Shown: positions 637 through 24,000 of the stretch, piece by piece
Layout of the letters: each line of letters opens with the position of its first letter
Position numbering within the stretch: the first letter of the stretch is position 1
Source of the DNA: Euglena gracilis
Lineage: Eukaryota
Direction of reading: 5' to 3'
NCBI GenBank assembly: GCA_039621445.1
Contig: CP154954.1
Location: forward strand, 27,268,123-27,332,122
DNA: 64,000 nt
Translations under genes and position numbers: made by a program
Notes under the pieces: model-generated
The model's database searches: none
The model's input: only the letters and a program-made list of their open reading frames with translations
What the model was told of the DNA's origin: nothing

Positions 637-1395
637 TTGTTCCTATGGCTGCTTCAAGTGGATTTCAGGAATGCCTTCAACTCCTTGTCACGGGAAAAAA
701 TCCTGCAATCCATCCGTAGACGATGCCCAGAAGTGTGCCCTTGGCTGGATTCGTGCTACGTCCAACACAGCAAGCTGTATTGTGGAAACCATTGTCTGCC
801 TTCCCAGAGGGGAGCTCAACAAGGCGACCCATGCGGACCTGCAGCTTTCGCCTGGGGTGTGCAAGACCTTTGTGAGGGCCTCTCACCTTTGGTCGAATGG
901 CAGGGGTGGTACTTGGATGACGCCCATCTGCTGGGATCGCCAGCCCAATTGCACAATGCCCTTGCCTTTCTAATTCGTGAGGCAGCCACGCTTGGGTTGG
1001 CCGTGAACCCTGCAAAATGTCGATTGTGGGGACCAGCGTTCACATCAACAGAAGGTGTCCCTTGCATTCCCCCTGGCACGCCACAGGATAGCCCCTTACA
1101 TCAAATACCACTGACCGCCTTTGTTGCTGGTTCTGGTATGAAAGTTTTAGGGGTCCCTGTCCACCACCCCCAAGATGACTGCTTCTGTGAAGAAGTTTGG
1201 AATGAGCACATTGAAGACATCCGACGTTCTTGCACAGTACTTCAGCACCTACCTCAATCGCATGTGCAATTCACCTTGCTTCGGTTTTGCTTATCCGCTT
1301 GCAAAGTGAATGACCTCTTGCGCGCCTGCAAAATCTCCTCTGCAACAGCGGCATGCAAGTCATTGTCGGGAATTATTCGGGAAACATTCCTTGAA
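637..1395 (+). pseudogene. Fragment of CRE/SLACS-like non-LTR reverse transcriptase
   Basis: Motifs LLQVDFRNAFNS, GAQQGDPCGPAAF, GWYLDD, GLAVNPAKC, KVLGVP. Truncated at both ends. Confidence 0.9.
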
Positions 1396-3046
1396 GCCTT
1401 GTTTGTGGAAATGTCTGACATTTTGTCCCGGATGTCCCCTGATGCCCTGGGTAAGCAAGAAAAGCTTCTAATGCTTGTGTCCAAAATTCACCCCCTGCAA
1501 TGGAAAGACATGAGATCTGACGAACGCAACCGTGACAAATGTTCGACCTTTGATTCCCTTCAAGAATTTTGGAGAAAGAAAGTCACCGACGATGCCCTGG
1601 AACGTTTTCTGTATTCCCAAGCCACAGCCTTCGGTGGTGAGAAGTCTGCCAAAATCCACCTGATTGGGGAAAGTGATGAGCCAAGTTCGACCAACCCTGG
1701 CAAAGGCAAGTCCAAGGGCAAAGGCAAAGGCAAAGGGTTCAACCAACACAAGCCCCCTGGCCGTGGACCCCCCGCAGACCGCAGCAACGAGCCAAATTTC
1801 AAGGCGAAAATAACCTGCAAATACTGCAAGCGTGTCGGCCATTATGAGGATGCTTGTTGGACAAAAAAACGGGAGGACAAGAAGCGTCTGAATCAATCAT
1901 CGCCTCAGCCGCCCCGTCCTGCCACACAGTCAAACTTGCCTGCCAATTCGCCCCCCAATTCTCGGGAAGACCCTGGAAAGAAGCGCAAATTCGAGTCCAT
2001 TTCATATCTGGGAAAACCAAGCACCACGTTGTATTTGGAAACCAACATTGGTGGAAGAAATGTGCCGGCTGTTCTAGATACCGGGGCCACCACGTCTGCC
2101 ATTTCAACCCGTTTCTCCCAAGGCCTTCCTGTCCAAAGAGAAAAGGCATTCCCGGTCAAGATGGACGATGGAACTGTTGTGTATTCGGAAGGTGTTGCTG
2201 AAACCACCCTGCATCTGGGGAACAACGACTTTCACCAAAAGCTGCTTGTCCTGAACACAACCGCGTTCGATGCTGTTCTTGGAATGGATTTCCTGAACCA
2301 CCCCAAAGTTTCTGGAATACTGTTTTGTCCTGCCCGTCTCGTCATTGGTGATGAGGCAATTCCTCTGCGTGAGGAAAAAGGACACATTTACTCCATGTAT
2401 CGATGTTTGCCACTGAAAGCTATCAGTTGCTACCCAAATTGCGAGCCAAAGCGCTGAATGATCTTGGAATTGAACCAACCAAAATCCGAGTGTGAAAAAT
2501 AAATAATTGTAAGGAAAACAGGCAGGTACTGGAATGAAACTTGAATGAATTTTGGGTGCAAATGGAAAAGAATTGGGTATGGAAAAAGTGGTTGGGAAAA
2601 CCCAAAAGGGAAATTGGAATGGAAATGTTGCGAAAAGACTTGATTTCGTCGCGAAAAGATCGCTGGGGTCAAACCAAAAAGATCGTGGTGGGAGGGTGTT
2701 GAGGGGGAATTTCTGGGGCCAAGACTTGGAGACGGCAAACCCAAAAAAAACAGGTGGTGGACATTTGGGATACGGGGAGATCTATTGATGCCAAGGTCGC
2801 AAAACCGTGTCACATCAGATGGGCGATAAACTGTGGAACCTTGAAACTTTTGAGGGAAACGACTTTGAGCTTGTTTAAATTTGATTCTGTATAAGATTGA
2901 TTCAATCCCAAAGTATCCACTCGTCCGTCATTGGGAAAATTTGCGTGAGGACAGGAAAGTCCATGTCTCGAATGTTTCGCGGGAAGGCTAATCAGTTGCT
3001 CCAAGCCAAATCAGATCTTGGAATTGAACCAACCAAAATCCGAGTG

Positions 3047-3420
3047 GACCTGTTTGCTTCACAAGGCAATGCCCATGAATTGCTCCACTGTTCGAAGGAA
3101 AACAGCGCATGGAAATATGACTGGTCAAAATTGAAGGCCAATGAGTCTGAGTTTCTGTGGGCAAATCCGCCGTGGTCCAAACTGGAAAAGACATTGACCA
3201 AAATTGGGATGCACAGGGCTAAAGTGGTTCTTGTGACCCCTGACTGGGGTGGAGGTTCGAGCACAAATTGGAGAAGACTGTTGGACAGAATGACTGTTGA
3301 TCAGATCAGTGTGCCTGATGAAAAGGTATTCATGCGCGAAAAAGATCAAAGGGTCCTGCCAAAACCCCAATGGGGGACTCTGATTTCTGTGGTGGACGGC
3401 ACCCGAATTCGTGTGTCTGA
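3047..3420 (+). pseudogene. DNA N6-adenine methyltransferase domain (DIRS/Dam-like) inside the Gypsy pol
   Basis: VDLFAS..N, NSAWKYDW, LWANPPW (NPPW at 3164-3175), VVLVTPDW. Same ORF (2897..4597) as the start of RT. Confidence 0.85.
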
Positions 3421-6400
3421 GCTTGACCCAAGACTTTTGGCACACCTCCATCGCAGATGCAAAAATCTTGGTCTGTCTGATCTCAAAGCCATTCACAAAC
3501 CAAAGGAGGTCTTTGTGGAAGTTGATGCCCAAGAGCCAAAACCGCCTGTTCCCTGTACACCATCAAAGCCCTGTGAGTCCAAACTGCCTGAACTCTCTCC
3601 AATTTCCATGAGAGACGATTTTGAGCTTGATTCAACCTGGGATTTGGACTTGTTCATGGCTGAACTGACCCGTGAAGTGGACTCACAAATTTTTCAGATT
3701 GCCGAATTGCTCCAAGATGTTTCAACCGTTGTTCGACAATTCACCAATGGGGGAGAGTGGTCCACCAAGGCCAAACGTTCTTCCCCGTTTCCCGCCTGCC
3801 GAAGTGATTTCCAACAAATTGCATCCATGTTCAACCCAAATGAGCACAATCATCTTCAAATGCAAGCAACCCAAAAGCAGTGGAAGGAATCTGACATTTT
3901 GCATGGCGAGTTCAATCAAGAATTGGAAAAGCTGGACGCAGAGCCCACAATCAAATCGATCCTACAAGAATTTTCCGATGTTTTTCGAGAATTGCCACCT
4001 CCTGGTACCTGCAAGAAACTGGTATCCATGGATCTGGAGCTAAAACCTGAATTTCAAGGTTCTACTGTTCGCGAGAAATGCTTTCCCATGCCGAAGCCTG
4101 ATGTTTTGGAGATGGAAAGACAGGTTGGGGAACTTGTCAGCTCTGGATTGGTGGAAGAATTCAAGGGTTCAGATTTTCCCAGATTCTGTTCTCGCTCATT
4201 CCTGGTGGAGAAGGACAAAGGCAAAGAGACCAAAATTGTGAAAACCAAACGACTTGTTGGTGATTACAGCAAGTTGAATTGCAAGACAGTTCCCGACGTT
4301 GGTTTTCTGCCGGACCTTGAAGCCACTGTTGAAGGCCTGGCCGCCCTGCATTACAAGTCAAAACTGGACATGCGCTCTGGATTTTGTGCAGGTGGAGTTG
4401 ACTCTCAGAGCCCAGGAGTTGACTGCCTTTATTTTGCCAAATGGACGCGTGTACAAGTGGAGGGTGATGCCTTTTGGTCTGAGCAATGCCCTTGGAGTGT
4501 TTCAAGAGCTAATGAACAAAGTCATCGACGATTTTCGACGCAGACCCAAAGCCAAGGAACTCCTGGAGCAAGGATGTGTGGTTGCCGCCTTCTTTGATGA
4601 TGTTGGAATTGGAACCCACACGTTGGAACAACACCATGAGATTTTGAGAGAGTTTTTCGAAGTCGCCCGACAAGATCACCTCAGAATCAAACTTAGCAAG
4701 TGTGAGTTCATGAAAGAAAGTCTGGAGTACCTCGGATATCAACTGGAAAATGGCTGGTGGAAACCCTCGACAAAGAAAATTGAGGCTTTGCAGCGTGTCC
4801 AAGTGAAAGATCTCAAGTCCCTTCAACGTTTTCTCGGATCCCTCAACTTCTATCGCCGCCACATCCCAAGGTTCTCTTTCACATCAGCCATTCTGACTGA
4901 CCTGACCAAAAAGGGTGTTCCGTTCAAATGGACCGATGAACATCAATCTGCTTTTGAGACCTTGAAATCGAAACTTGCCGGTGTCAGAAATTTGGGAGTC
5001 CCCAACAGTGATGGAGAAATTCTGATTGTCACTGACGCCTCTGATGTTGGTGGCGGTGCAAGCCTCTACCAATGGCAAAAGTTGAGCAAAGACAAAACTG
5101 AGTCATTTGGTGCTGTGATCGGAGTCAACCGTGATGGAACCCTGAAACACACCCACACTGAAAGCGAAGTCCTCGTGCCGCTCGGTCATTTTAATTGGAA
5201 ATGGTCGCCCGCGCGCCAAAATTACGCTACCTACGAACAAGAATTGCTGGGTGGGGTGTTGGGCATTGCGTCTCAACGCCGAATCGTCTCACACCTGCCC
5301 ATTGTCTGGCTGTGCGACCAAGCTGCCGTTTCGTACTTTGTTCGCGGGAACCCCCCTGAGAATGCCCGACTGAAACGCTGGTGGGTTTTTCCTGTCCCAG
5401 ACAACCTTTGTGAACTTTTCCAAGCTGACAGTGAAGACCTTGCCCGACAAGATTTCCAAAGAATGGACATCCAGCTTGATCTGAGAATGGAGGCTTTGGA
5501 ACAAATGAAGGACCTTTGCCCCCAGGACTATCAAGAGGAGTATGCACAAGTTTGGGGGAGAATCCAACCTCACAGTGCAACCCTGATTGACGGAACCATG
5601 TTTTACCGCGACGAGAACGAATGGAATGAAAAGAAACTTGTTCTGCCGAAAGAAAAATTGCATGATACCATTGCCCGGTGCCACACGATCAATGGACACC
5701 CTGGAATCGAAAGGACAACCTGGTTCCTGAAAAGCAATTTCCACGTTGACTTGACTCTGAAAGACCTGATGGAAGAAGTTCGGAAAACCATTTTGCCTTG
5801 CAGAATATGTGCTGAAGCAAAACCGAACTCAGCCAAAGACCGAGGATTGGTTGGTGCATTACCGATCCCTTCGATGGTGAATGAAATTTTGTATGTTGAT
5901 TTCATCTCGATGGATGAATATGCTGGCAAGGACTACATTTTGACAATTGTCTGTGGTTTGTCCCGCTTTGCCCAGTTCATCCCCTGCCGCAAACGGATCG
6001 ATGCAGAAGGTGTTCTGGAACTTGTGTTCAGAGAATGGATTCAGAAGTTCGGTCGCCCCAAAGAAATATTCAGTGACAACGATGTGCGTTTCGTTTCAGA
6101 AAGAGGATTTTGGCAATCCGCCCTGAAGGCCATGAAAGTGAAAGTAAATTTCTCAACTCCCCGAAGGCCTGAGAACAATGGTTTGTGCGAAAGGATGAAT
6201 CGGAGTTTCGTACAAAACATGCGGTGTTTGATGGCAAGCCAAAAATCAAAGGACTGGATTCGCCTTGTTCCCCTGTGCACCTGGATGATGAACAAGTTCA
6301 CTCGTCAACCCAACTGTGCCCCGCTGAACTTTTCTTCGGCCGACCCGCCTGGCAACCGGACCTTGTCCCTGAGCCTGATGCCAACCCGAATGTCCAATCC

Positions 6401-6804
6401 TGGATCACCAACCAAATTTCTCTTCAAGAGTCCGCTGTCCAACGGCTGAAAGCCCTCAGAGAAAAGGCGCTTCAGAGAAACAACCGTGGAAGGTCAACCG
6501 CTGTCTATCAAGTCAATGACTATGTCCTGGTCCATCGCAATCGGTTTCCCCAATGGCCAACTGCAAAGTTGGGATCCCAATGGTTTGGACCTTTCCGAAT
6601 CATCCAAGTCAAGCACTCCACTGTTTTGCTGAGAGCGTCCCCGAAACTGGGAGGTGAAGTTGAAGTCGCTTTCAAGTTCCTGAAGCGTTTTCCAAACCAG
6701 CCTGAAGAAATGAGCGACAATGAAGACGAAGCAGAAATTTCCGTTCGGGATGAGGCAAACCAACCTGAAGCCCCACCTGAGGAACCCAACACTGAAGAAG
6801 ATGG

Positions 6805-7291: not shown

Positions 7292-7632
7292 TGTAACGCC
7301 GTAGCCTGATTTACCAGTGCACAGAACACTTTCCTCTTACCCAGGCGTCGCTTTGCGATGTCTCCTTCCTGGCAGCTCCCTGCTGCTCAGGATGGCACCC
7401 ATTAATATCGCACGGTGGTGGGGCGAACCGAATCCACCGACCAGTGGCACTGCCTACTGGATTTGAGTGTTCGGGGGAGATGGAAGCTATGTACAGATGG
7501 GGAGACCCCATGGATAGTCGGAAGTGGTTAGGCAGAGGCAACGGGGATGTAGCCAATTTTTTGGTCCCACCAACAAGCTCAACCAATGAGTCAAGTGATT
7601 ATGTGTCAAATTTGATAGGAGTATTTGTTACA
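7292..7632 (+). repeat. 3' LTR of the Gypsy element (~341 bp)
   Basis: Polypurine tract gagtgggaga (7281-7290) followed by TGTAAC...GTTACA terminal inverted repeat. No 5' LTR in the window to confirm. Confidence 0.75.
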
Positions 7633-8909: not shown

Positions 8910-9122
8910 CCATCCGCCCGCCCTCCCGCCCGCGCCAAGCAGGCCGCCTCACCCCTACCGTCAGCCACCCCAGCCGTCAGCCACTCAAGCCGTCCCTCTG
9001 CGCCTTATATTGAAGATGGGCCTTGCCCGTTTTCCTCCTGCCACTGGTCGGTGGACTCGGTTCGCCCCACCACCGTATATAAAGGTCATCATAGTGAAGC
9101 CCCCGGTAAAGCCTGTGTTGGT

Positions 9123-9194
9123 ATGCGTGTGTGCGTGTGTGGGTATGGGTGTGTGTGCGTGTGTGGGTGTGGGTGTGTGGTTGTGTTGTGTGTG
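9123..9194. repeat. (TG)n-rich microsatellite
   Basis: Imperfect TG/GTGG repeats next to the poly(A) end of the minus-strand element. Confidence 0.85.
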
Positions 9195-10118
9195 TTTTTT
9201 TTCGCATACCTCCTCCCGTGGTTAACGGAGGACGTGGTTGGGTTGTAAGAGGTGGAGCAAGGCGATGGCCACATTTTGGTAGATTTCCGCTTGCTTGGTT
9301 TCGCGCTCAGCGCCTTTGGGCACAGCCTACTGGGTTTCGTCAGAGTTCGAAGGAGGGGGGCTATGTACAGATGGGCGCAGCCCATGGGCAGTGTGGTTGT
9401 TTGCGGTGGCAAGGTAGGGGGTAAGGGGGATTAGCAGTGGGGCCAGTGGGCTTCAAGGCGGTCGTGTAAGTGCCGGAGGTCGACTACTGTTGGTGGGGTC
9501 GGAGCCCTTCGGGCAACCTGGTCCGTTGTCGGAGATCACGTTCACGGCTGCGGGGCAAGGTTGTTGGCGGTTAGGCGGCTTTGTGGGCCACCGTTTGGCG
9601 GCTTTGTGGGCCACCGTTTGGTTCTCGGGCCGCGGTTCCTGTTTCCGGGCGTTGCGGTGGCCGGAGGGCGTGATGACGCGATCAGCGCGGAGTCGATCAG
9701 GGAGGTCAACGAAGGAAGTGTTTCGGGCGTAGCATCTGTGCCACTTGGCGGAAGAGGGCCAACGCGATAAGCTGATAGCCTTCGGCCTGTCGTGTGCAAC
9801 GCACGTCGCCCTGCTCCCACGTAGCGGTCCGTTTCACCATTCTGGCCAGTAGTTTGGCACTTTCCGGTCCCACCCCACCCCACGTGCCCATTGCCACAGT
9901 GGCGAACGACCAACCGCCGTTGCGACAGGGGACATCGTATTTGGCGTGTTTCGCTTGCTCCCGCCGCTTAAGGAAGGTTCTCCAGCGTTCCCGGGTCCCG
10001 CTTTGCTTGCCGGGGTGAGCAGACGTAGCCACCGCCAGTGTTGGCCAGTCCAGTAGATCTCCTCCCAGACGTCGTCGGGCGCCAGGGGGGGGGATGGGCT
10101 CGCCGGTCCCCCCGGGCG

Positions 10119-10175
10119 AGGCCCCGGGTTATCCTCGATATCGCCGCAGCAGAGGATATCCCTGTGGCAGAGCTG
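10119..10175 (-). other. 2A-like StopGo peptide coding sequence
   Basis: QLCHRDILCCGDIEDNPGP matches D(V/I)ExNPGP. Confidence 0.85.
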
Positions 10176-11505
10176 CCTCGAGAGGCCGGGGCGACTGTGA
10201 CCGTCGGCGTGATGCCACCCCATCGTATGCCCGTGGCGCCGACCCCCCCGAGGGGCGGTAGCCGGCCGCCCTCCCCCCCCCATCTTGGGGCTGCGCGCAG
10301 GGGGGATACATGAGCAGCTGGACGTCGTCGTCCGCCAGGTCAGACCAGGTGCGACCGGGGGGGTGGGGGGGCAGGGGGGAAGCGGTGATATGGATTCCCT
10401 CCAGCCAGTGGTCCACGAGGACTTTTTTTGTTTTTTTTTTCTGGACCCGGTCCATTCCCCCCAAATGGAGGCGTCCGTCGAAGACAGCACAGACCAATCG
10501 TCTGCTGCTGAAATCGAGTTTGTCGGCAGGTTGGCCGGGGCTCTGGAACTGGCTGCTAAGGTGTGCTCCTTTTTTTGTGCAGCCCTTTTTTGATCCACCA
10601 GGTCGGTGACCATTTTCTTTTCCTCAGTGGACCTTGTCCTGAGTTTTTCCAAAATCCTCTGGATTTGGGGTGTTGTGGTGCATTTTTTGGGGGGGGGCCT
10701 TGGCCCAGTCCTGGGTGTGACTTCAAAAACTTCTGCCCCCCCCCCCTCTTCCACTCCCCCCCCCTTCGATTTGGCAGGGCACAAATGAAGGAGATGGTGG
10801 GAGGGAGGGTCCAGAGGGTCCAGCTGCCATTAAGAGCGGGGCATCGGTAGCAATGGACATGTGGCTGCCATTTGAATTTAAATTTAAATTTGGAACATTT
10901 CCAAGCAGCATCCACATGATTTGTAGCAGCAGTTGTCGCAGCAGGTCGGTGGGGAGCTGCAGCCCTTGGTTGGCTGTTGCACTGGCTGTCATGGTGGGGG
11001 TGTTCCTCACAGGGCCCCCCAGGAGGCTGCCCATCTGGGCCCCCATTTGGCTGCCCATTTGCCCCATTTGGGGCTGCAGCTGTTGCTGCTGTTGCTGATG
11101 TGGCTGCTGTTGTTGCTGGGCAGTCCTTCCGGGCTTCCCCTGGGGATTTAAAAGTGTGTGGTGTGTGTGGTGTGTGTGTATGTGTTCAAGCCAGGGGGGC
11201 GGTAAGGGCTGCTCAGGCTGGTGTCGGAGGTGGCGGGGGGGGATGTATCGGCTCTGGTGTTTTTTTTTTGAGGAACTCCTCATAGGCTTCGTCTTCTTGT
11301 CGTCTCCTTTTTCCCGGTCGTCCTTCCTCCACCTTGTCGGCCAGCTCTTCCACTTTGCTTGCTAATACCAGCATATTCTGAGCCACCAGGCTCACTTGCT
11401 CCAGCACCGAATTCATTTTTTTGTTGAGGATGACGTTGTCCAGCGGCACTTCCAGCACGGCTGGCGGGTCTTCTGGGGCCGCGGCCCCCGACATGGCGGT
11501 TTATG

Positions 11506-11533
11506 CGAAAAAAAATAGACACTCAGAAAGTGT
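11506..11533 (-). other. Euglenid spliced-leader exon sequence (genomic copy, not an SL RNA gene)
   Basis: Reverse complement is ACACTTTCTGAGTGTCTATTTTTTTTCG, the Euglena SL. Followed by CATA rather than a GT donor, 11 nt upstream of an ATG. Confidence 0.92.
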
Positions 11534-11951
11534 GGTTAGGAGGCGTTGGCTTCACTATCAACTGCTTCGCGGACAGTTTCGCTACTGTAATTGTAAATTA
11601 CTCTCACCTCCTCTTCACAGTTTTGGTTTTATTCGTTGATTGGCAGTGCACATTACGTGCTTTGCCTGTGGCTGTGTCTTGGACAAGATTATAACAAGAG
11701 GTAGGATATTTCAAGTTTGGAACTATCAAGTTGGTTGGAGAAGTTCCAGTTCAAGGAGAGAAGTTTCAACCTCCGCACCCTGACAACACTCTTTTGTACA
11801 TTACACCAACAGTATAAGCTACCCGCAACCTGTGGCGGCACAGGGAGTCACAAGGGGGTTCCTCTTGTGGCGAGGGCCAAAAGAGACGTTTCCCTGGGCC
11901 CGCGGCACGGTTTGGGTGAAGCTGTGCTACCCACCGTGAATGAAAAACTGA

Positions 11952-14900
11952 GTGTATTCATTAACAGCGCAACAGCAAACACCAAGGCTGGTGGTGGTTG
12001 ATACCAGGGAAACCCGGAAACGTCGAGCAGAACGAGATCCGGACTCATCAGATTCGGATGCGGACAGTGGTGTCTTCCATTGCCCCTTTGCCCCTTGTGC
12101 GAAGTCATTGCGACGGAATTTCCAAGGCTGGAATGCGAAGCGGTTGATGGTCAACCACGTGGCGACAGTGCATGTGGCAGCCAATGAAGTGCCATCTGCA
12201 TCATGGCTGCTACAGACACAACGGTGGGTGTGCAGGCATTGCTTGCGTCTGCTACCGGAAGGAAAGCGACTGCTTTCGGGTGCGAGCGGATCCCGTTCCT
12301 TCCAGATTACCGCCAGTGTCACACCCAGCACCACCACCACCTGCTGCTTCCTCGCGCCAAGGCTTGACAACATCATTGGACACCCAAAATGCAGCCATGG
12401 CCGGGGCAATCAATGAGATCCTGTCCCTCTCACGGCCGCTCTTTCGGCACATCCCACGTGGAGCAGTGACAGTGTGGGGTGTGGCATGGGCAGAGGTGCA
12501 ACAACGCCTGTGCAGAAAGCGGTCATGGGAGTCATTGTGCGATTGGGCACTGTTCCAAAAGGTGACCTTGTGGTCCCCAAGGGGGGGCAAGGAGCACAAA
12601 GGCCAAGCAGTGGAGCTGATACGCTCACGAGTGCGGCGATTCAAGGACGGCGACATCATTTCTTTTTGGGAAGAGCACTGCCAAAGCTTTCCTCGACCAG
12701 GGCGCAAGATAAAGAAAAGCGACGTGTCCTTATCCTTACAAGACAAAGTGGAGAGACTGCAAGAACGACCCTTTTTGAACGCCTTGCGAGGACTCATGGA
12801 TGACGGAGCATTCGGGAAAGCAGTGAAGCACATGATGTCGGATGGTCTGCACGACCCGGTGGATCTCAACGTGCAATCCAAATTGCGAGACTTCCATCCA
12901 CGGAGACCGCAAGTGGCCTGTCCCAATCCAGTGGAGGCTAGGCACAGCGGGGGGGGGGGGGGGCTGGGGGGGGCGGGGGGCGGGCCGGGCGGCGGCGGGG
13001 GGGGGAGGGGGGGGGAGGGGGGTCCAAGGGCGGCCGCGCGGGCGGAACGCATCCTAAAATCGGTGATTTTCGGGTCCAAAAAGTGGTCATTTTTTGCCAT
13101 TTTTGGGCCATTTTTGACCAAAAAAAGTGCTTTTTTGGCCGCGCGCAGAGCGCGCGGCCCCCAAATTTGCCATTTTGGGTCCAAAAATGGTCATTTTTGG
13201 TCATTTTTGGGCCTCAAAAAATCGCGATTTTTTTACCAAAATTTTTTTTCTTGGCTATGCTAGGCACAGGGGGGGGAGGGGGGGGGTCCAGTGGGGGGGG
13301 AGCGGCTGCGCGGCGGTCCGCGCGTGGGGGCCTCGCGGGGGGGGCGGGGGGGGTCCCGGACCCCCCCGTCTGGTCTCTGGTCCCGGACCCCCCCGAGCGG
13401 CGCGCCTAGCCTCCAGTGTTGAAGAACCTTCCGTTCCCCAATGAGAATTCGAGTCAAGACCTTCGTGATTTGCAGAAACTTCTACGAGAAACATTGCTTT
13501 CGTTTGCAGCGGGCGTCCGCAGCGGGCCCCGATGGGTTGAGACCGCAGCATTTGCAAGACATTGTGCGGGTGGATGCAGGAGCAGCGCCTCTCGTGCTGT
13601 CAGCATTGAGCTCCTTCACCAAGGCAGCGCTCGAAGGACACTGCCGCCGTTAGCCATGCTCTGCATCGCTGATCCCTTTGAAGAAACCGGGTCCTGGCGG
13701 CAACATCAAATATCCGCCCAGTGGCCGTCGGGAACACAGTACGCCGGTTTGTGGGGAAGTTTGGCATGAATTCCGCAGTGGTGAAGCAACGTGCAGCAGA
13801 TTTGCTACCAAATCAAAGTGGGGTGGCAATGGATGGAGCCTGCGAGACCATCGCCCAAGGACTGCAGTCCTTGACGCAGAACACACCCGGGGAGGCGTGG
13901 GCCATCTTGCAGGTCCACCTCCAGAACGCCTTCAATGCGGTGGATCGGCAAGCTCTGTTGGATGCTGTGCGTTCACGTGCACCGTAATTGGAAGCCTGGG
14001 CTCGCCTGTCATATGCGTCACACTCCGTCTTGTATCTCGCCACATCAAGGCAAGGCGCACAAGGTGCCCTTGGGACCGCTCTTCTACACCTTGACATGGC
14101 AAGATCTGGTGACAAGACTCCCCGGGATCGTGGGCATGGAGATTTGGTGACAACTCCCGGGGAAGCTCCCGCGATGCTGCATCTGCAAGATGCCCCTTGG
14201 GCACGGAGGCCTCTCTCTGGAAATGTTGCAAGCTCCAGTCGCCTCGGGGTGCACCTGAATGAAGCGCTTTTTGCAAAGCCCAAACTTGAACTGCCTGCGT
14301 CCTCCCATGGAAAGTCCCCTGGCTGCCTGGCCATGGCAACAAAGTTTCGCAAAAAAGATGCACGTTTGGGGATCAGATGCAAAAGAGATGCAGGTTGTGA
14401 TGCCATGCGTGATGCCGATGTGAGTGGAGCATGAGCGTGTTTGCCCTTGATGTGCCTTGTGGCGCATGCCGTGCGTGCATGCTTCTTGCTTCCCAATGGA
14501 GCACCCAACGTCAACATTCGCATGCACGGTCGGACAATGCCACTTGAGCAATCTCGCCGCAGTGTGACAAATTGGATGCGCAAATGCACTCCCCCTGCGC
14601 AGCTTCCGGGCAAGGATGCACGCATCACGCCGCACGTGGGACAATGGTCAGCCAGTGATGACAGTGGGCGCAATGCACCCTCCCCCTGCGCATATGGCGG
14701 GGTTGGGAATCAAGGATCCGATTGTGTTGCAAGCGCCGGCAAGGATGGCATGCATTTTATCCTCACAAGAACGCCACCAGGTGCTCAAGTTCCCGCCGGA
14801 GGCATGCGTACTGCCCCCTAACTTTGTGAATGTGGCGACGGAGCTCCAAAAGCATTTGGGACAACAATTTGCACCTCTCAAAGAATGGGTGGAGAAGCGA

Positions 14901-15844
14901 AAGCCCGTCGACGCAGAAGCGGACCATGCAAGCCAACAATGGTGGTCCGAGAAGGTGCACTTGGCACGCAAGGATCCTTTGAAGAATGCCCTCTCCCTAC
15001 GAGATTGTTGCCGGTTGCGATTACAATCAATGCCACACACCACAGCGTGGGCCAAGACTGTGCCCAACAAAGGCATCGGAACCCAAATCCAGCATCGAGG
15101 TACCGGCTGTTGCTAAGATGGTGGCTGGGGGCAAAGGTGTTGACATGCGCAGCAGGAGCACCGTGCCGATTGTGTGGTGAAGCCCTTGATCCCTTTGGTG
15201 ACCATTTGCTTTGTTGCAAGAAGAACAAGCTTGTGCAGCGACATAACGCTGTACGAGGTGCGCTTGCAATGGTCCTCAGAGAGAAAGGGGTGCACACCCG
15301 CACGGAAGTGGCAATTGGCAGCAAGACGCGCCCGGCGGACATTGCCTTGGATGGGGTGGATCCAGCAGGGCCGCTGGCAGTCGATCTCGTGGTGTTTCAC
15401 CCATTGCGCAAAGACTTCACGTGGGACGAGACTAAGACATTGAAGAACATGGCAAGCATGGAGAACAAAAGAATCACCAAGCACCAACCAATATGCGAAG
15501 CAGCAGGATGGTTGTTCAGCCCTTTGTCTTTTCACCCATGGTCCGGCTTGGGCCCACTAGGCTCTGGCCTCATCAGCCGTCTCGTCAAGCAAGCACTGGG
15601 TGACAGTCAAGGTTGGGCCAGGCCGCATATGTCCGCCGACATTTGGCAACGCATTTCAGCAGCTTTGATGTCATTTGTGGCAGAGGAGCTCTCGCCGACA
15701 ATGTCAGTGAAAGGGCAAGACCAGCTCTCACTGACAGTGACAGCACAGGAGGTGCGACTGCCAAGACGCCGACAAACCTGCACCCCTGATGGCAGTCTCA
15801 CCCATGGATCTGGATGGGTGGCAGCAAGAAGAAGAGCAAGGTGA
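11952..15844 (+). mobile_element. Near full-length degenerate CRE/SLACS-like RLE non-LTR retrotransposon
   Basis: C2H2 finger CPFAPC..HVATVH plus CRHC; GPDGLRPQHL; AVGNTVRRFVGK; LQNAFNAVDR; GLGI; CCHC CRLC..HLLCC; RHN..RPADI..AVDLVV..K..KH. Many frameshifts and stops. Confidence 0.9.
12934..13413. mobile_element. MITE with GAGGCTAGGC TIR and 5-bp TSD (CAGTG)
   Basis: Removing it rejoins ORFs 12172 and 13416 in frame (..CPNPV|LKNLPF..). A short copy lies at 20473-20545. Confidence 0.85.
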
Positions 15845-16684
15845 TGGGACAAATGTGGGTCTCATCCGCATTCAATGCTCCCGACCGCACCAAGAGGAGC
15901 CCGGCAGGAGGTAGCCCCTCCAGCTCAGACACACACACACACACACAAGGGAAAAAAAGACAAAAGGGCCCACGCCCCTCAGGGCAAGGCCAGCGAGAAT
16001 CGAAGTCAAACCAAACATTGACAGGCGGGTGCAACGGCTCGCGGTGACCCGTCCCGATGGCAAAGAACAGCACGCCGTCATGGGCGACGCGCTCGCACGG
16101 GCGACGCGCGAGCACGACACACGCGAGACACGCGCGAGCCGTGCCAAGCTGTGCCGAGCCGTGCCGAGCCGTGCGCTTCCAAAGACCCGGCCGGCTAGCC
16201 GGCCAGCCGGCCAGCCGGCCAGCCGGCTGCGTGGAGGAGGCCCTCCACCCATGGTAAGTCCCCCCCCACCGCAAACCACACCAAAAGCGAGCAAGACCAA
16301 GACCAAGACGGCCACAACCCACAAAGCGCGGAGGTTAACCACGGAAACGCCCCCCCCCCCCCAAAAGGCGGCCCCCCGGTGTCACCGCTATGGTCGCTTG
16401 CCCTTCACACGGGCTGTAGAAGGGGCATTTCGCGGCAGCGCTCACAACGTGGACAACACCGGCTATTTCGGCTGGCCCAGGATTTGTTACCTCTGCCCCC
16501 GGGAACCGCAAAAAACGCTCACCCCCCCCCCCCCCCAAACCTCATGATTGACCCCCCTGGTTTGGGTCCCAACTCCTCGTTTAGCCCGAGATACGGCCAA
16601 TTTACGGTTTCGGGCCTCGAAATGGCCAGAACTGGCAAAACTGGTTGGCCCAAACCGCACATACCGATCGATAGGGAGTTCCTA

Positions 16685-16792: not shown

Positions 16793-18095
16793 AAACCGTT
16801 AACCAAGTTCACGGGCTTCCTCGCAGTAGGCAAGCGCTTCCTAACGAGATGCCTAGGGGGTCAAAAATCTCGTTTTTGGCGTTCACGGGTGAACTTTGGC
16901 CGTTCACGGGTGCCGTAGTGCGCACCCGTGAACGGAATTTCCGTCCACGGCTGCCGTGCGTGCACGCGTGAACCGACCACGGTTGCGCAAGGTGTTACCC
17001 GTGATCGGAATTTGAATTTTTTGGGTTTTCAACATTTGTGTTTCTGTCTGTCTGCTGCTTTTCCCCACAGTCCGATGAAGCGTTTTGCCAACATGATGGA
17101 AGCACAGATGCCCCGCCCCCCCAACGTAGATGAATTTCTGGCTGTTTTACGTGGTGCTGGCTCCCTAGGAGCTGCTGCAGTGGATGCCCTTTTAGGCAGT
17201 CTCCCCACCGGTGGTCAAAATTGTGACTTGGGCCCCAAGAACCATGCCGCAGTAAAGTGTTTTTTGGGGTATATGGATGTTTGCAACCGGCATGGCGTTG
17301 TTCTTAGCTCTTTGGACGAAGTTTTGGTGGGATGGGCCAGATGGTGCGTTGATGCTCGTGAAGTTTTCAAGACGCAGCAGGAAGCCGATGCCTGGGTCCA
17401 GACAAGGCAGGAGAAGGTAGGAAAAGATGGGCGCCTTCGCTCCATGCCAGTGTCCAGTTTTCGGACCTATGTAAATGCTGTAAGCAACATTTACAAGGCA
17501 TTGGCTCCCGTTTATACCATCATTGTACCATCGTCTGTGTCCCAGTTCCCGCAGTTCAATGTGTTAATGAAGCCACTCGTCACGCACGAAAGGGCCAAAA
17601 AAGCAATGGAGGCTTTTAGTGACACGGATGTGGGTGCAGCCAAAAGTGTTCATTGTTCCGTTTGTGGCGAGACGTATCATTTTGTGTGTGCTGAGCTGCG
17701 TCGCGCGCCGAAAAAAGCGTGGATTTGTCAGGGTTGTCGTTGAGTTATCCGTCCTGTTGTTCCTCTGACCATGCCGAAAGGCATCGCGAGCATGTGCCTC
17801 GCACCGAAATTTAGTTTGCCGCGTGTCAGTTCCCTATGCCACCTCTTGCATTCCTGCCCCCACCCCTCAAGTTCACCAGGTTCGCCATTTGTTTCAAATC
17901 CTCTTCCCTAGTGCATAAATCTTTTCCCTTTTTTAAAGGCAAAATTCCGTCCACGGCTGCCGTCTGTGCACCCGTGAACCGACCACGGGTGCGCATATGT
18001 GAAAACGGGGTCCGTTCACGGGTGCCGTAGTGCGCACCCGTGAACGCACCCCGTTTCCTCACGTGGGGAAGCCCGTGAACGGTTAACGGTTTTAA
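16790..18095 (+). mobile_element. TIR-bounded, internally deleted tyrosine-recombinase-family element
   Basis: TIR ttaaaaccgttaacc(aa)gttcacgggcttcc at 16790-16820 and 18067-18095; subterminal gttcacgggtg..cacccgtgaac hairpins at both ends. Confidence 0.7.
17075..17743 (+). CDS. YR N-terminal (core-binding-like) domain fused to a partial PHD finger; catalytic domain missing
   Basis: Aligns by eye with the N-terminus of 18862 (EFLA.L, LD...V..A.W, TYVNA....YK, VP...SQFP). Ends CSVC..YHFVC..WICQGC. Pyrimidine tract plus AG just before the ATG. Confidence 0.7.
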   Translation: MKRFANMMEAQMPRPPNVDEFLAVLRGAGSLGAAAVDALLGSLPTGGQNCDLGPKNHAAVKCFLGYMDVCNRHGVVLSSLDEVLVGWARWCVDAREVFKTQQEADAWVQTRQEKVGKDGRLRSMPVSSFRTYVNAVSNIYKALAPVYTIIVPSSVSQFPQFNVLMKPLVTHERAKKAMEAFSDTDVGAAKSVHCSVCGETYHFVCAELRRAPKKAWICQGCR

Positions 18096-18116: not shown

Positions 18117-20158
18117 TACCGGGGGGATTAAAATACCGCTCGGTAGTAATACTGAATGGATTAATACCGCTCTTTAATAAAGCCTCCCATACGCCGGGGC
18201 TTTGGCAGGGGGGGGAGGGGGGGTCCCGAGGTCTGATTTTTTTTTGCATTTTTGGCACTTTTTGCTGTACTGTCTCAACACAGGGGGGGGAGGGTCCTGG
18301 GGTCCCAACTGTACTGCCAAACCCCCCCCTCAAAAATTGGCCAAAAACCGGCGCCGAAGGCGCCGGAAAAAATTTTTATGGCCTTTTTTTGGTCCAAAAA
18401 GGCCATTTTTGGTCCAAAAAGGCCATTTTTGGTCCAAAAAGGCCATCTGTCTCTGACCGTTCGGCACTAGGGGGGGGGTCCCAAAAATCCCAACTGTACA
18501 GGGGGGGGAGGGGGGGGTCCCCAAAAAACCCCAACTGTACTGCCATCGCCCCGCCTGATCGTTATGATGTGAGACAGAAAAAATGCACTCCGCGATCCAG
18601 ATAAATTTTTGCTCGATCCTAATTCCGGCCGCCGTGCCAGAAAAATGCCCAGATCGCCAGTCACGGAAACTCGCCCAGTGAGCGGAATTTATATCAGGAA
18701 AGACCCCCCCTCCCCCGACTTTGTCCTGAGTCGGAGGGGGGGTCTTGCTATAAGTCGGTGTACCAACCCCCCTCCGACTCAGGACAAAGTCGGTGTACGC
18801 CTAATGAGGAAAAGTGTCACAATTACGTTTTCAACCAATACATTTGTCTTTTTACAGCTCCATGTTGCCTGCACAGGTCGTGAACGTCGCTGAAGCCGCC
18901 CTGGGACCCCTGCCATCACCCGCAGAGTTTTTGGCAAGGTTGAAGGACGCCGTGGAACCCCAAAACAAACCTTCTGCGGACACAGTGCTTTTTGGAGATA
19001 CTTTCAGTCAAACTGTGTCCCAGCCTTATAGCAGCGCCAAAAATCAGAAGGGGGGATTTGTCGCCCTCACCAATTTTCAAAAAATTTGCGAAATGCGAGG
19101 CTATGCCACCACGGATTTGGATGATTATGTGGTGGCATTTGCAAAGTGGGTGCTTTCAGTGCACGCTTTGCATGACACAGAAGCTGAAAAGATTGCCACT
19201 AAGGCACAAAGGCAGCTTTTGTGTCAACAGGCTGGGGTGCCCATGTATGAATGGGCTCCGCAAACGTTGACAACGTATGTCAACGCATTGGCTGTGCTGT
19301 ACAAACAAACAAAACCATTGCATTCCATCGTCCCAAAGGCCAAAAGCCAGTTCCCAAATTCTGTCCGATTTGTGACCGCGGCAGCATCACGGCTGAAAAA
19401 GATGAAGGCACGAGCGCCGGAGGTGCGTGTGATGGACGATGAGGACATGCTAAAGTTGCACGCACAGACCAAATGGGGTTCCTGGTACGAGACACAACGA
19501 TACAACCTCCTGGTGCTGTCGTACAACTTGGGGCAAAGGGCAGAGTCCATGGAACAGCTTCGCATCGGCAATTTTCATCCGGACGTTACTGACGAGGGCC
19601 ACAAAATTATGAAAGTGAAGTTTGGCAAAATGAAGAATTTGCAAGGCAGTTCGTCCAAGGATGCCCATGAGCAGATTCTGTTCCCGCACGAGAATGAAAA
19701 AATATGCCCCATTGTCGCTTACCACCGCCAAGTATCCATTGTTGGGACGGACGATCGCAACGGAGCACTTTTTCTTGGCGGCGGTAACGCACCTGCTGCC
19801 CGCGACAGCCTGAAACCGACAGACCTCAGCAACGATGTCCACCTTCAAAGGAGCCATAGCTTGGGCACGTGGGGTTCTTGGGAGGCCAGTGACGTTCCTC
19901 TTCCCTCTTCCCTCCTGTGCCTTGCTTTCACCATGAGCATGGCAGCCGCAACCAGTATACAATGGTTAGAAAAATGGATTGCTCCAGAAGAAAGGGGGTC
20001 CACCGGACTCAGGACAAAGTCGGTGGACCCACCCCCCGACTTTGTCATCCCTGAGTCCATCGTAGGGTACACCGACTTTGTCCTGAGTCGGAGGGGGGGG
20101 TACACCGACTTAATCCAATCGACAATCAATGCTGAGCGGTATTTTCATCCCTCCGGTA
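18117..20158 (+). mobile_element. Crypton-like tyrosine recombinase element with inverted repeats
   Basis: Imperfect IR 18117-18164 / 20110-20158; inner inverted motif ccgactcaggacaaagtcggtgtac on both sides of the ORF; GC-rich MITE-like insert at ~18183-18545. Confidence 0.7.
18862..19900 (+). pseudogene. Tyrosine recombinase (Crypton/DUF3504-like), C-terminally truncated
   Basis: RYNLLVLSYNLGQRAES (catalytic R), KMKNLQG (catalytic K), ICPIVAY, ALF. HxxR and catalytic Tyr not seen. Confidence 0.8.
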
Positions 20159-20678
20159 ACTTTCCATCAACTCCGCAGCGTTTTCGAGATATTTTGAAAT
20201 TTTTGATTTCTTGACCCCCAGCCCGGCCACCCTCGAACCCCCGCAGGGGCCCCCGAATACGCAAAAATGGCCCAAAATCGCACAACCAGACCCCGGGAAC
20301 CCCAAAAAACGGTCAAAACCCTCCCTAAACCTCATGATTGACCCCTTGGTTTGGGTCCCAACTCCCCGTCTAGCCCGAGATACGGGCAAATTACGGTTTC
20401 GGGCCCCGAATGGGGCCGAAATGGCCAAAACTGGCCAAACTGGCCCAAACCCCCAAAACAGCCATATCTTGGGAGGCTAGGCACAGTGGGGGGAGGGGGG
20501 GGGGTCCCGGACCCCCCCCCCCCCCGAGCGGCGCGCCTAGCGTCCCTTGGGCTAGGCGAGGAGTTGGCCCAAACCGCGCATACCGATCGATCGGGCGTCC
20601 CAAAGTTGTGGAATGACGTCCCCATCACTTTCCCTCAACTCCGCAGCGTTTTCGAGCTATTTTGAAATTTTCGATTTT

Positions 20679-21014
20679 TGGGTCATCATGGGCATCGTTG
20701 GCCATCAATGGTCATGATGCGCATCATGGGTCATCATGGGCATCATTGGTCATGATGGCCATCATGGGTCATGATGTGCATCATGGGTCATGATGGCCAT
20801 CATGGGTCATGATGGCCATCATGGGTCGTGATGCGCATCATGGGTCATCATGGCCATCATTGGTCACGATGGCCATCATTGGTCATGATGGCCATCATTG
20901 GTCACGATGGCCATCATTGGTCATGATGTGCATCATGTGTTAGGATGGCCATCATGGGTCATGATGCGCATCATGGGCCATGATGCGCATCATGGGCCAT
21001 GATGGCCATGATGG
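20679..21014. repeat. 19-bp minisatellite with a palindromic core
   Basis: Unit CATGATGGCCATCATGGGT, roughly 15-17 degenerate copies. Confidence 0.9.
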
Positions 21015-24000
21015 GCTGGGGGTCGAAAACCGCCAATTTTCGGCTCGAAAACACTTTTTCCGGGTTCAGGAAGCCAAAAAACATGCTTTTGGGCAAAAAA
21101 AATTTCGATTTTTTTCGACTTTCGAAAACGGCTACCCCCCCCCCCCCCATTGTCCCACCGACCTCGCCCGACCGGACAATAAGGGGGGGGACAACAAGGG
21201 GGTACCAAAGGAATTTCATTGGCCGAGCCAAAAAAAGCCCCCGTCAGCCGGGGCCGAGGGACAATAAGGGGGGGGACAATAAGGGGGGGGGGGTAACTCG
21301 GACAGTGGAAAAAGTGTACAAAATGGTCCAAATTGGCGGAAAATGGACAAAACTCGGGCTGGGCAGGGAGTTGCGGGGAAATCAAAATACCAGTAGATAG
21401 GGCGTTCCAAGGGCTTCAATTTAGGTCTCCGGACATTTTTTTTCAAGTCCCCACCACTTTGGAGATATTTTGTAAAAACTGGTTTTTTGGCCCGTTTTGG
21501 GCTCCAAATGGCAGAGTCCCCCTATGGCGAAACCACAAAACGACCATATCTCGGCCCAGGCGTGGAGTTGGCTCAAACCGCGCATACCGGTGGGTAGGGC
21601 GTCCCAAAGTTGTGGAATGAGGTACTCTTTACTTTTTCTCAACTCCCCAGCGTTTTCGAGATATTTTGAATTTTTCGATTTTTTTTGACCCCAAAAATAA
21701 CCCCCTTTTGCCGGTCCAACAAAAGTTCTTTGGAAAAAATAACGGTACACAACTTTTTTGCTCGGGCCAGATCTCCGGACTACCCCCGCAGGGGTCCCCG
21801 AATACCCAAAAATGGCCCAAAATCGCACAACCAGACCCCGGGAACCTCAAAAAACAGTCAACCCCCCCCCCCTAAACCTCATGATTGACCCCCTGGTTTG
21901 GGTCCCAATTCCCCGTCTAGCCCGAGATGCGGGCAAATTACGGTTTCGGGCCCCGAATGGGGCCGAAATGGCCAAAATTGGCAAAACCCCAAAACAGCCG
22001 TATCTCGGCCCAGGCGGGGCGTTGGCCCAAACCGCGCATACCGATGGATAGGGCGTCCCAAAGTTGTGGAATGAGATCCTCTTCACTTTTCCTCAACTCC
22101 GCAGTGTTTTCGAGATATTTTGAAATTTTCGATTTTTTGCCCCCAAAAATGACCCCTTTTGCCGGTCCAACAAAATTTCTTTGGGAAAAAAACGGTAGAC
22201 AACTTTTTTGCTTGGACCATATCTCCGGACTGGCGGGGAGTTAGAGGCAAAATGAGGGCTTGTTAGAAACTTGAAATCTTCTCCTAACCTACAGGCTATT
22301 AACTTTTCTGGTGAAGAAATCCAATCACATCGATAATCGCGGGGTTTCCGGACCTACCCAGCAGGGGTGTAGAAAGTGGGGGTCGGGGGGGGGGGGGCGG
22401 CGGCCGCCCCCCCCCGGGATTTTGGAAAGAAAATTTTTTTGGCAGGAGCATGATATTTTTCTTTTGCAATGCCATGATCAATGGTTCAAAGGGCGTTACC
22501 ATCTCGGCTTCCTTCGGCAGCCACCTTACCAGTTAAAATCACATTTCTGGAAAAATGAAATTGCAAAATCCATTACCGTCTCGGCCGCCCTTGGCAGCCG
22601 AAATAAAGCCCTTGAGAAAATGCTCATTTCACCTCCCTAAAACCCATGGCACTTCTTGATGTCTAATTTTGGCCACAAACCGACCCCTTTCCCCTCCTTT
22701 GATACTAATTGTTTTTTTGGGACCCCACAAACCACTTTCACCTTGGCTGTTTGAATACAACCCGATTCCCCATGAGTCCCCCCCTCCATTTTCTTGACCA
22801 GCTGAGTTTGGGGAAACTCTGCAGGTCAATTTCAATGAAAAAAACAATTTGCGCAAAGTGAAAAAAAAACGCTTCTTCGCAACCCCCCCATCCCAGGTTG
22901 CAAAGTCGAAAGTTGGGTTGAGTTGGGAGGTTTCCAAAGGGGTTCTACCCATGATTTCGCTTTCTAGTTTTTTGGGGGGCATTGGAGGCTTGTCCACTTC
23001 GGGACCCCGGACTCCCCCTCCCCCCCCCCCTGTTCAGTTCACTTCGGAAGTGCACAGGGGGGTCCTGAGACCGACCCCCCCCCTCCCGTGTACCTGAATG
23101 TGCTTGTTCACTGTTCACTTCGGGAAAAAACTGAAAACGGAACGACGGGCGAACACCGAAAAGGGCATTTTTCAAAAAAATTTTGGCGCCTTCGGCGCCG
23201 GACCCCCCCCTCCCCCCCCTCCGGGAAGTCAACATGTCCAGTTCAGTTCGGAAGTGAACAGGGGGGTCCGGGGCTCCATTGGGCTCCATTGTACTGGGTT
23301 CCATTGGGCTTCAAAGAGACGTAAGCGTCTCGGCCCCATTGTGGCCAGGAGGACAAAGAAAAATCCATTTTGGTTGTGCCAAAAAAATTTTTCGGCTCGC
23401 CCCCCCCCCCCCCCGGGAAAAAATTGTTGTTACACCTTTTGTACCCAAGGGGGCTGGGGGGGCGGGGGGGGGGGGGTCGGACCCCCCGTCGCTGGGGTGG
23501 TAAGCTTCGCTCTTACTCTAAAGAGATAAGAGCTCAGCGACCCCCCCAAATAATACCCCCCCCAAATAATAAACCCCCCCGAGGACCGACTTCGGCCCAA
23601 ATGATAAACCCCCCCTCTGGCAGGTGTGAGGGCAAAGAAAAAAAAGAGTCAAAAATTAGCAGAAATGTTGCAAAAAAATTCACAAAAATTGATCAATTTG
23701 GTGCAGAAAATATGCCAAAAAAGCACCCAATTTTCAAAAAAAAAGCCCAAAAATGTCAAAAAAGTGACCATTGGAGCCTGTGGAGGGGTTTTTGGGTTGA
23801 TTTTTGATTTCGAAATTTTTGCCCAAATAATTAACCCCCCCAAATAATAAACCCCCCCTGGAGCTCGACTTCGGGTGTCCAAAAAATAAACCGGGGGGTT
23901 CATTATTTGGGGGGGGGGTTACCTAGCCTCTAATGTCCGTCCGTGTCTGTTTATGGCCGGGGCCAACTTCGCTTCTGGCCCAGTTTGTGTGGTGAGTGGC

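Follow-up and report, generated by a model that had tools for sequence, protein, structure and literature searches.

A retrotransposon-derived unit headed by a complete spliced leader in the Euglena gracilis genome

A spliced leader outside the SL gene array

The stretch of DNA analyzed here (the window) comprises 64 kb of Euglena gracilis contig CP154954.1. On its minus strand lies a unit that begins with a complete E. gracilis spliced leader (SL), continues through a short leader into a long reading frame, and ends in a 3′ module that is shared with other copies. The SL occupies 11533..11506 and reads ACAC TTTCTGAGTGTCTATTTTTTTTCG. In this 28-nt form, with the leading AC, it is identical over 28/28 nt to the SL-specific primer printed for E. 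gracilis (PMC5654406, in excerpt). In the 26-nt canonical form (ACTTTCTGAGTGTCTATTTTTTTTCG, 11531..11506) it is identical over 26/26 nt to the published E. gracilis SL, which is given as 26 nt long (PMC6242988, in excerpt). The match is unique in the 64 kb even when three mismatches are allowed; 0.00 matches were expected, and none of 100 shuffled sequences gave one.

The SL is separated from the start codon (ATG, 11494..11492) by an 11-nt leader (CATAAACCGCC, 11505..11495), which follows the SL with CA, not GT, and is itself directly followed by the ATG. An earlier note on this DNA had described a full 28-nt SL placed 11 nt before the first ATG and lacking the GT of an SL intron, and that description is exact. 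For a control, metagenome contigs were scanned with the 24-nt SL core, which yielded seven matches at six loci (L001–L006). All seven are true SL RNA genes, and in every one the SL is followed by GTAT; the bases before the SL are ACAC in five of them and ACA in two. A 5S rRNA gene is present in 5/6 of these contigs. The spacing between the SL RNA gene and the 5S gene in these five euglenid loci is ~100–200 nt, and locus L003 additionally carries a U2 snRNA gene. Tandem linkage of SL and 5S genes in E. gracilis goes back to Keller 1992, as cited in PMC10679874 (in excerpt).

None of this organization is seen in the window. There, the SL continues into CATAAACCGCCATG, with neither the GT intron nor the Sm-type AATTTTTGG site of an SL RNA gene, and tandem 5S linkage is absent. 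No Rfam family reached its gathering score in the 64-kb window, and the vicinity of the SL site gave no 5S or SL RNA match even at E ≤ 10. Because there is no GTAT intron, no Rfam family, and no nearby 5S or SL RNA match, the window SL does not belong to an SL gene array. What is found is a DNA-encoded SL joined directly to a 5′ UTR, which is the arrangement of a retrocopy. Among the public contigs listed, none bridges the SL junction.

The reading frame behind the SL

The frame that opens at this ATG closes at a TGA (9708..9706), so that it spans 9706..11494 on the minus strand, and it comes to 595 aa after six corrections. As assembled, it meets a stop after 93 codons from the ATG and is dispersed over six frame pieces with five frame hops, each break falling within a homopolymer run. 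Homopolymer lengths differ between the window and short-read contigs at 11260, 11235, 10429–10432, and 10242. At 11260, the contigs have one base fewer (181.8 of a depth of 539.2 in run X1, 7627 of 10317 in X2, 206 of 392 in X3, and 5 of 5 in X15). They have two bases fewer at 10429–10432 and one C extra at 10242, in both cases at all of the depth in runs X1 and X3. Removal of one base at 11260 alone extends the frame from 93 to 256 aa. When all three contig-supported corrections are combined with three further ±1 homopolymer changes, an unbroken frame of 595 aa results, which includes NPGP and ends with KHFLR. The further changes (at 10736–10764, 10273–10281, and 10085–10093) were inferred from the frame and not from reads, in a search that allowed up to three extra edits over 14 homopolymer runs.

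Given that the breaks all lie in homopolymers, that contigs display the changes at several of them, and that the corrected frame is continuous over 595 aa, we conclude that the SL heads the element's own single long frame. The frame breaks are largely errors of the long-read assembly. The homopolymer differences across 9700–11500 indicate systematic indel errors, and apparent frameshifts elsewhere in the window should not be taken for decay.

The part of the protein that precedes the 2A peptide (~455 aa) has no relatives at near or longer lengths, nor does its middle part, and it gave no usable Atlas match. A neighboring ORF matched only unnamed Atlas clusters, and Pfam reported no family for any of the 10 ORF pieces of the SL-headed unit and its neighbor. 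To judge from the continuity of the frame and from a repeat-like cover by contigs, this protein probably does belong to the element. Several contigs from three runs map to the ORF1 region, and one of them (at 11383–11495) is ~10% diverged, which hints weakly that the region is itself repeated. Three runs guessed to be DNA have contigs that match pieces of the SL-headed unit at 97%–99% identity. In run X15, which was guessed to be RNA, small contigs (depth 3–6) cover parts of the unit and of the upstream flank as well; since the flank is covered too, these contigs are no evidence on expression.

2A peptide, pol C-terminus, and family identity

Toward the end of the frame, motif and conservation predict a 2A (StopGo-type) peptide, QLCHRDILCCGDIEDNPGP, at 10175..10119 on the minus strand, with the core CCGDIEDNPGP at 10151..10119. 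The pattern D[VI]ExNPGP occurs once in the six frames of the window, at this site. Among the 11 relatives of at least 500 aa (found as described below), five have CGD[IV]ExNPGP upstream of a reverse transcriptase (RT), two of these five being cluster mates of others. We had considered CHRDILCC as a CCHC finger, a candidate that was rejected when the relatives were seen to have a true 2A peptide. Such peptides are known in APE-type non-LTR elements (PMC3708506, in excerpt).

The 2A peptide is followed, after only some 45 residues, by the last ~98 residues of pol, the C-terminal end of a pol/endonuclease domain (SGTRERWRTFLKRRE...KHFLR, 10002..9709, minus strand) recognized by its phmmer relatives. 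Against 1.84 billion representatives, phmmer returned 123 proteins at E ≤ 1e-3, 39 of them at ≤1e-10 and two at ≤1e-30; the best match has E 8.4e-32, and the matching region is always the C-terminal end of the relative. Ten relatives were scanned for domains, and half of them have RVT_1 (P0009, P0016, P0023, P0084, and P0111); the other five, which are the shorter ones, gave no family. A comparison of P0023 with the PDB gave RT chains at E 0.13–0.36, which is not significant. In the long relatives (alignment A1), the order is a variable N-terminal protein, the 2A peptide, ~330 aa, RT, CCHC, an RPAD...DVTV core, and the conserved C-terminal end. In P0009 the N-terminal protein is Dam-like, scoring 28.3 bits where the cut-off is 28.1, and P0016 falls just under the cut-off. 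Within the window, the last ~100 residues are also 30% identical (E 5e-12) to the C-terminal end of a plus-strand ORF at 14822–15841, which comes after RT-like motifs.

The unit thus has the homologous C-terminal pol domain and the upstream 2A peptide of this family, and no RT domain is present within the window copy. On these sequence comparisons, it is best classed as an RT-less, internal-deletion derivative of a non-LTR family with 2A, RT, CCHC, and restriction-like endonuclease. The earlier note had spoken of a retrotransposon copy; membership in the family is borne out, but the unit is a deletion derivative and not a full element.

The deletion junction lies at 10007/10003 on the minus strand, as placed by alignment A1 and by contigs that diverge from both sides. 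It joins the region behind the 2A peptide to the last ~98 codons of pol, and what would lie between them, namely RT, CCHC finger, and endonuclease core, is absent. One contig of run X2 matches the window down to 10007 and departs from it there; from the opposite side, two contigs of run X3 match it as far as 10003 and then depart. The X3 overhang, read by hand on the minus strand, gives VAHGWQAAE and then SGTRERWRTFLKR, the conserved core of the relatives. At most 5 nt are shared at the joint, and none of the public contigs listed bridges it. Because the contigs diverge at 10007/10003 into the conserved core, longer, undeleted relatives are present in the same sequencing runs. The window copy itself is nonautonomous, having lost RT and endonuclease core through the internal deletion. 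A match of RRLGGDLLD to the PD motif is probably spurious, because significant homology starts at about residue 31–46 of the 140-aa query and the undeleted contigs diverge at 10007.

The 3′ end and its flanks

The 3′ untranslated region runs from 9705 to 9319 on the minus strand, and its last ~69 nt (9387..9319) are the start of a 3′ terminal module of 103 nt that is common to another copy at 7513..7412. The terminal 38 nt of the module (TGCCACTGG...CACCACCGT) are found at 9039..9076 in inverted orientation, on the plus strand. When joined in silico to 9319, they continue it colinearly with the other copy, with a 4-nt overlap (TGCC). The breakpoints of the 280-bp segment between them (9039..9318) are complementary to the missing 3′ end, and we infer that this segment was inverted, either after insertion or in assembly. 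Twin priming was considered as the cause and rejected for its topology, as the inverted tip lies beyond the body of the unit and not beside the SL end. There is no poly(A) tail; the family terminus is ...CACCACCGT.

Beyond 9076, 82 contigs of run X2 and 38 of run X3 have unrelated flanks (agreement 0.34–0.35), whereas before 9039 the contigs share the upstream part of the 3′ module. This argues that 9076 is the end of a dispersed repeat, as expected for 5′-truncated non-LTR copies, and the diversity of the flanks argues against a fixed target site. Summed contig depth, a figure that is not a copy number, is far above that of the surroundings at 9039–9076 and at 11802–11940 (plus strand) in all three runs guessed to be DNA, with repeat boundaries at 9076 and 11940. 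Both intervals probably represent 3′ ends of elements that are short or 5′-truncated and very abundant.

The trypanosomatid elements CRE1/CRE2, SLACS, and CZAR are non-LTR elements specific to SL RNA genes, with halves of the gene on both sides. The Euglena unit resembles them in coming from the Euglenozoa, in the C-terminal restriction-like endonuclease of its family, and in its physical association with an SL. Unlike them, it has no intron, Sm site, or 5S neighbor, no SL-gene halves are found at its flanks, and the 3′ flanks of its family are diverse, with no fixed site within SL RNA genes. The link that the earlier note had drawn to such SL-gene-targeting elements finds no support in the many different sequences that adjoin the family 3′ end in the X2 and X3 contigs.

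Once the 280-bp segment is turned back, the unit is bracketed by an 11-nt repeat, ATAGTGAAGCC, of which one copy lies 14 nt upstream of the SL (11548..11558, minus strand) and the partner 14 nt past the 3′ end (9091..9101, plus strand). The 5′ flank (167 nt) and the 3′ region share no other match of at least 9 nt, and this one brackets the unit only in the un-inverted arrangement, where the flanks read ATAGTGAAGCC AACGCCTCCTAACC on the SL side and ATATAAAGGTCATC ATAGTGAAGCC on the 3′ side. The pair could have arisen as a target-site duplication, with fillers of 14 nt, or the repeat could have existed in the target beforehand. In the latter case, the insert would extend exactly from the first base of the SL to ...CACCACCGT. 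Because 14 unexplained nucleotides lie at each end inside the repeats, the 5′ edge of the insert may not coincide exactly with the SL.

The earlier note had also seen no remainder of an SL gene at the 3′ flank. This stands as far as intron, Sm site, and 5S gene are concerned, but a weak SL-like piece (GTGTGTGTTTTTTTTCGCATA, 9188–9208, plus strand) lies there in inverted orientation, mirroring the 3′ end of the SL plus CATA. It forms a 21-nt inverted repeat with 11502–11522 (19/21 identical), and the 14-mer TTTTTTTTCGCATA occurs at these two places only (0.06 expected). A 19-nt SL test that allowed up to three mismatches did not detect the piece, which has four mismatches in the 9 nt before its T-run. 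The inverted repeat may be due to chance, or it may be a sign that family members join SL ends. The A8 tail of a fragment at 9222–9326 (minus strand), inside the inverted segment, accounts for the piece as well. That fragment is 5′-truncated and consists of the last 34 codons and stop of a second pol, 80% identical (E 3e-15) to the C-terminal end of the metagenome protein P0001, followed by TATGCG, A8, and a (CA)n tract. One X2 contig (joint 9075 to 11508) carries the family 3′ tip, then 33 nt with AATTTTTGG, then an antisense SL, and its AATTTTTGG resembles the Sm site of SL RNAs. GTATAT, which follows the 3′ end, was considered as an SL intron and rejected, as the GT belongs to the shared 3′ module that ends at 9076.

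Origin of the SL-headed unit

The reading that we favor, with a probability of roughly 0.6, is that a trans-spliced mRNA of the element was reverse-transcribed up to its cap-proximal 5′ end. A euglenid non-LTR element would have been transcribed, and its RNA would have received the SL by trans-splicing 11 nt upstream of the ATG, as most Euglena mRNAs do. The RT of the family would have copied this mature RNA into DNA up to the first nucleotide of the leader, which would leave a DNA-encoded SL. The loss of ~0.9 kaa of pol may have been present in the RNA template already or may have arisen when the RT jumped at a microhomology of ≤5 nt, and the window copy, being nonautonomous, would have to have been made in trans. 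The 280-bp inversion of the 3′ tip would have come later. Trans-splicing as the source of the SL and retroposition as the route are thus our reconstruction from the present arrangement of the locus.

Several findings favor this reading: an exact, complete, and unique SL that is joined without a GT intron to the 11-nt leader and ATG; a frame behind it that leads to a 2A peptide and on to a pol C-terminus with 123 relatives; a shared 3′ module whose tip borders many different flanks; and an 11-nt direct repeat on both sides of the unit when the inversion is reversed. Against it are the single SL-headed copy, the missing poly(A), the 14 extra nucleotides at each end, and an N-terminal protein without relatives; nor was a parental outron with AG acceptor seen, or a bridge over the SL or deletion junction among the public contigs listed. 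The finding rests on one rearranged, RT-less copy. Reverse transcription of an element RNA to its extreme 5′ end, as the earlier note had suggested, is the best-supported reading in view of the SL set directly against leader and ATG, without intron, Sm site, or 5S gene, and it is drawn from that one copy.

The SL could instead have come from DNA, if a master copy lay directly behind an SL exon (of an SL RNA gene or an orphan SL) and was co-transcribed with it, a strategy like that of CRE/SLACS/CZAR. The family does have a C-terminal CCHC and restriction-like endonuclease (alignment A1), as do the SL-gene-specific elements of trypanosomatids, and the 14 nt upstream of the SL inside the 11-nt repeats would fit a read-through template. 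Two junctions point the same way, namely the X2 contig that links the family 3′ tip to an antisense SL and the SL-like T8CG+CATA that adjoins the antisense 3′ end of the P0001-like fragment, although the latter is the piece with four mismatches before its T-run. We nevertheless consider an SL taken from DNA unlikely, as neither flank has an intron, Sm site, or 5S gene, insertion was not site-specific given the diverse 3′ flanks, and the GT after CACCACC is the element's own, inside the shared module. It is quite improbable, too, that the unit is a chimera made when the RT switched from the 3′ part of an element RNA to an SL-capped host mRNA, so that SL and N-terminal protein would be host-derived. 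Chimeras of L1 with cellular RNAs are known (PMC13174262, in excerpt), the ~455 aa before the 2A peptide have neither relatives nor a Pfam family, and the upstream protein differs in relatives (the Dam-like domain of P0009/P0016). Yet the N-terminal frame runs in phase into the family's 2A peptide, and the cover of ORF1 by contigs of three runs, one of them ~10% diverged, hints weakly at repetition.

An artefact seems very unlikely. It would mean that a transcript copy bearing an SL had entered the contig through a mis-join, or through a long read that was chimeric or came from cDNA. The many homopolymer errors of the window, the odd 280-bp inversion, and the lack of a bridge over the SL and deletion junctions among the public contigs listed would be in keeping with an artefact; but the SL is embedded within a 64-kb contig between stretches of repeat sequence, the 11-nt repeat occurs in both flanks, and pieces of the unit recur at 97%–99% identity in three runs guessed to be DNA.

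More doubtful extensions of the favored reading, reverse transcription of a trans-spliced element mRNA, concern the family as a whole. It might propagate as an SL-capped RNA that needs no promoter, or its endonuclease might nick at SL sequences, and we hold either to be improbable. If the former were true, each full-length retrotransposition would write an SL into DNA, read-through transcription and renewed trans-splicing would express the new copies, and the SL would be a heritable 5′ terminus. If the latter were true, SL copies would be both product and target of the family; the hint for this comes from the two junctions in which an SL 3′ end meets the antisense 3′ end of family members.

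Comparison with known systems

Internally deleted or spliced LINE copies and LINE-mediated processed pseudogenes lack RT and are made in trans by the enzyme of the family. The Euglena unit is like the deleted LINE copies in being RT-less, in keeping both ends, and in having been made, on the favored reading, in trans. It is unlike them in that its 5′ end is marked by a trans-spliced leader, which would be direct evidence of a mature mRNA template.

The closest precedent, as far as the excerpted literature goes, is provided by the DinoSL-tagged retrogenes of dinoflagellates, where SL-tagged retrogenes and relict spliced leaders have been described (PMC6050394, PMC5585692, PMC12014239, and PMC3942190, all in excerpt). 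In those sources, the DNA-encoded SL was regarded as proof of the reverse transcription and integration of a mature trans-spliced mRNA. The Euglena unit shares with these retrogenes the DNA-encoded SL at the 5′ end of an intronless copy. Unlike them, it comes from a euglenid, the tagged RNA is that of the retrotransposon and not of a host gene, and it has a single complete SL, without a truncated relict SL behind it.

With L1Tc, ingi, and other 2A-bearing non-LTR retrotransposons (PMC3708506 and PMC1874656, in excerpt), the Euglena family shares a 2A peptide before the pol region. Those elements are of the APE type, unlike the Euglena family with its C-terminal CCHC/restriction-like endonuclease and an SL on a copy. 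The internal promoter of L1Tc gives rise to unspliced transcripts (PMC3708506 and PMC1874656, in excerpt).

Among the papers listed, by title and abstract, for Euglena with retrotransposons and SL and for SL-tagged retrogenes or retrotransposons, none describes a DNA-encoded SL or an SL-headed retrotransposon in Euglena. The excerpted text of the chromosome-level genome paper (PMC11252322) offers repeat statistics only and is silent on spliced leaders and trans-splicing, and in that of the draft-genome paper (PMC6366073) we found no mention of retro-elements, pseudogenes, or reverse transcriptase. The present case would extend a phenomenon of dinoflagellate host genes to euglenids and to mobile elements themselves. 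A DNA-encoded SL is a molecular timestamp, in that it would record a mature trans-spliced mRNA as the template and its copying to the very 5′ end. Because >70% of Euglena mRNAs are reported to be trans-spliced (PMC10679874, in excerpt) and about half of the 2.37-Gb genome consists of repeats (PMC11252322, in excerpt), the mark could be used genome-wide, both to list retrocopies and to date the activity of retrotransposon families. It could also tell families that are expressed via trans-splicing from those that use a promoter of their own.

Neighboring features of the window

Head-to-head with the SL-headed unit is a second, degenerate non-LTR element (11950–15850, plus strand). It has an N-terminal C2H2-like finger, pieces of RT motifs (RPVAVGNTVRR..., 13682–13984), and, in the ORF at 14822–15841, a CCHC finger and RPAD..DL core; it has no 2A motif.

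The body of a Ty3/gypsy-type LTR retroelement lies at 1138–6449 (plus strand), with aspartyl protease, RT, RNase H, and integrase. Its middle ORF (2963–4597) has a weak match to a Dam-like methyltransferase (E 8.6e-4, below the cut-off); in P0009 and P0016, a similar Dam-like domain is found at the N-terminus, before the 2A peptide. Farther along the plus strand, an ORF at 17075–17743 has a PHD finger at its end (E 7.7e-5, narrowly short of the Pfam cut-off), and a neighboring ORF of 450 aa, at 18862–20214, gave no family. The region 20624–21053 is a tandem array with a 19-nt unit of palindromic character, in which 15 registers were found.
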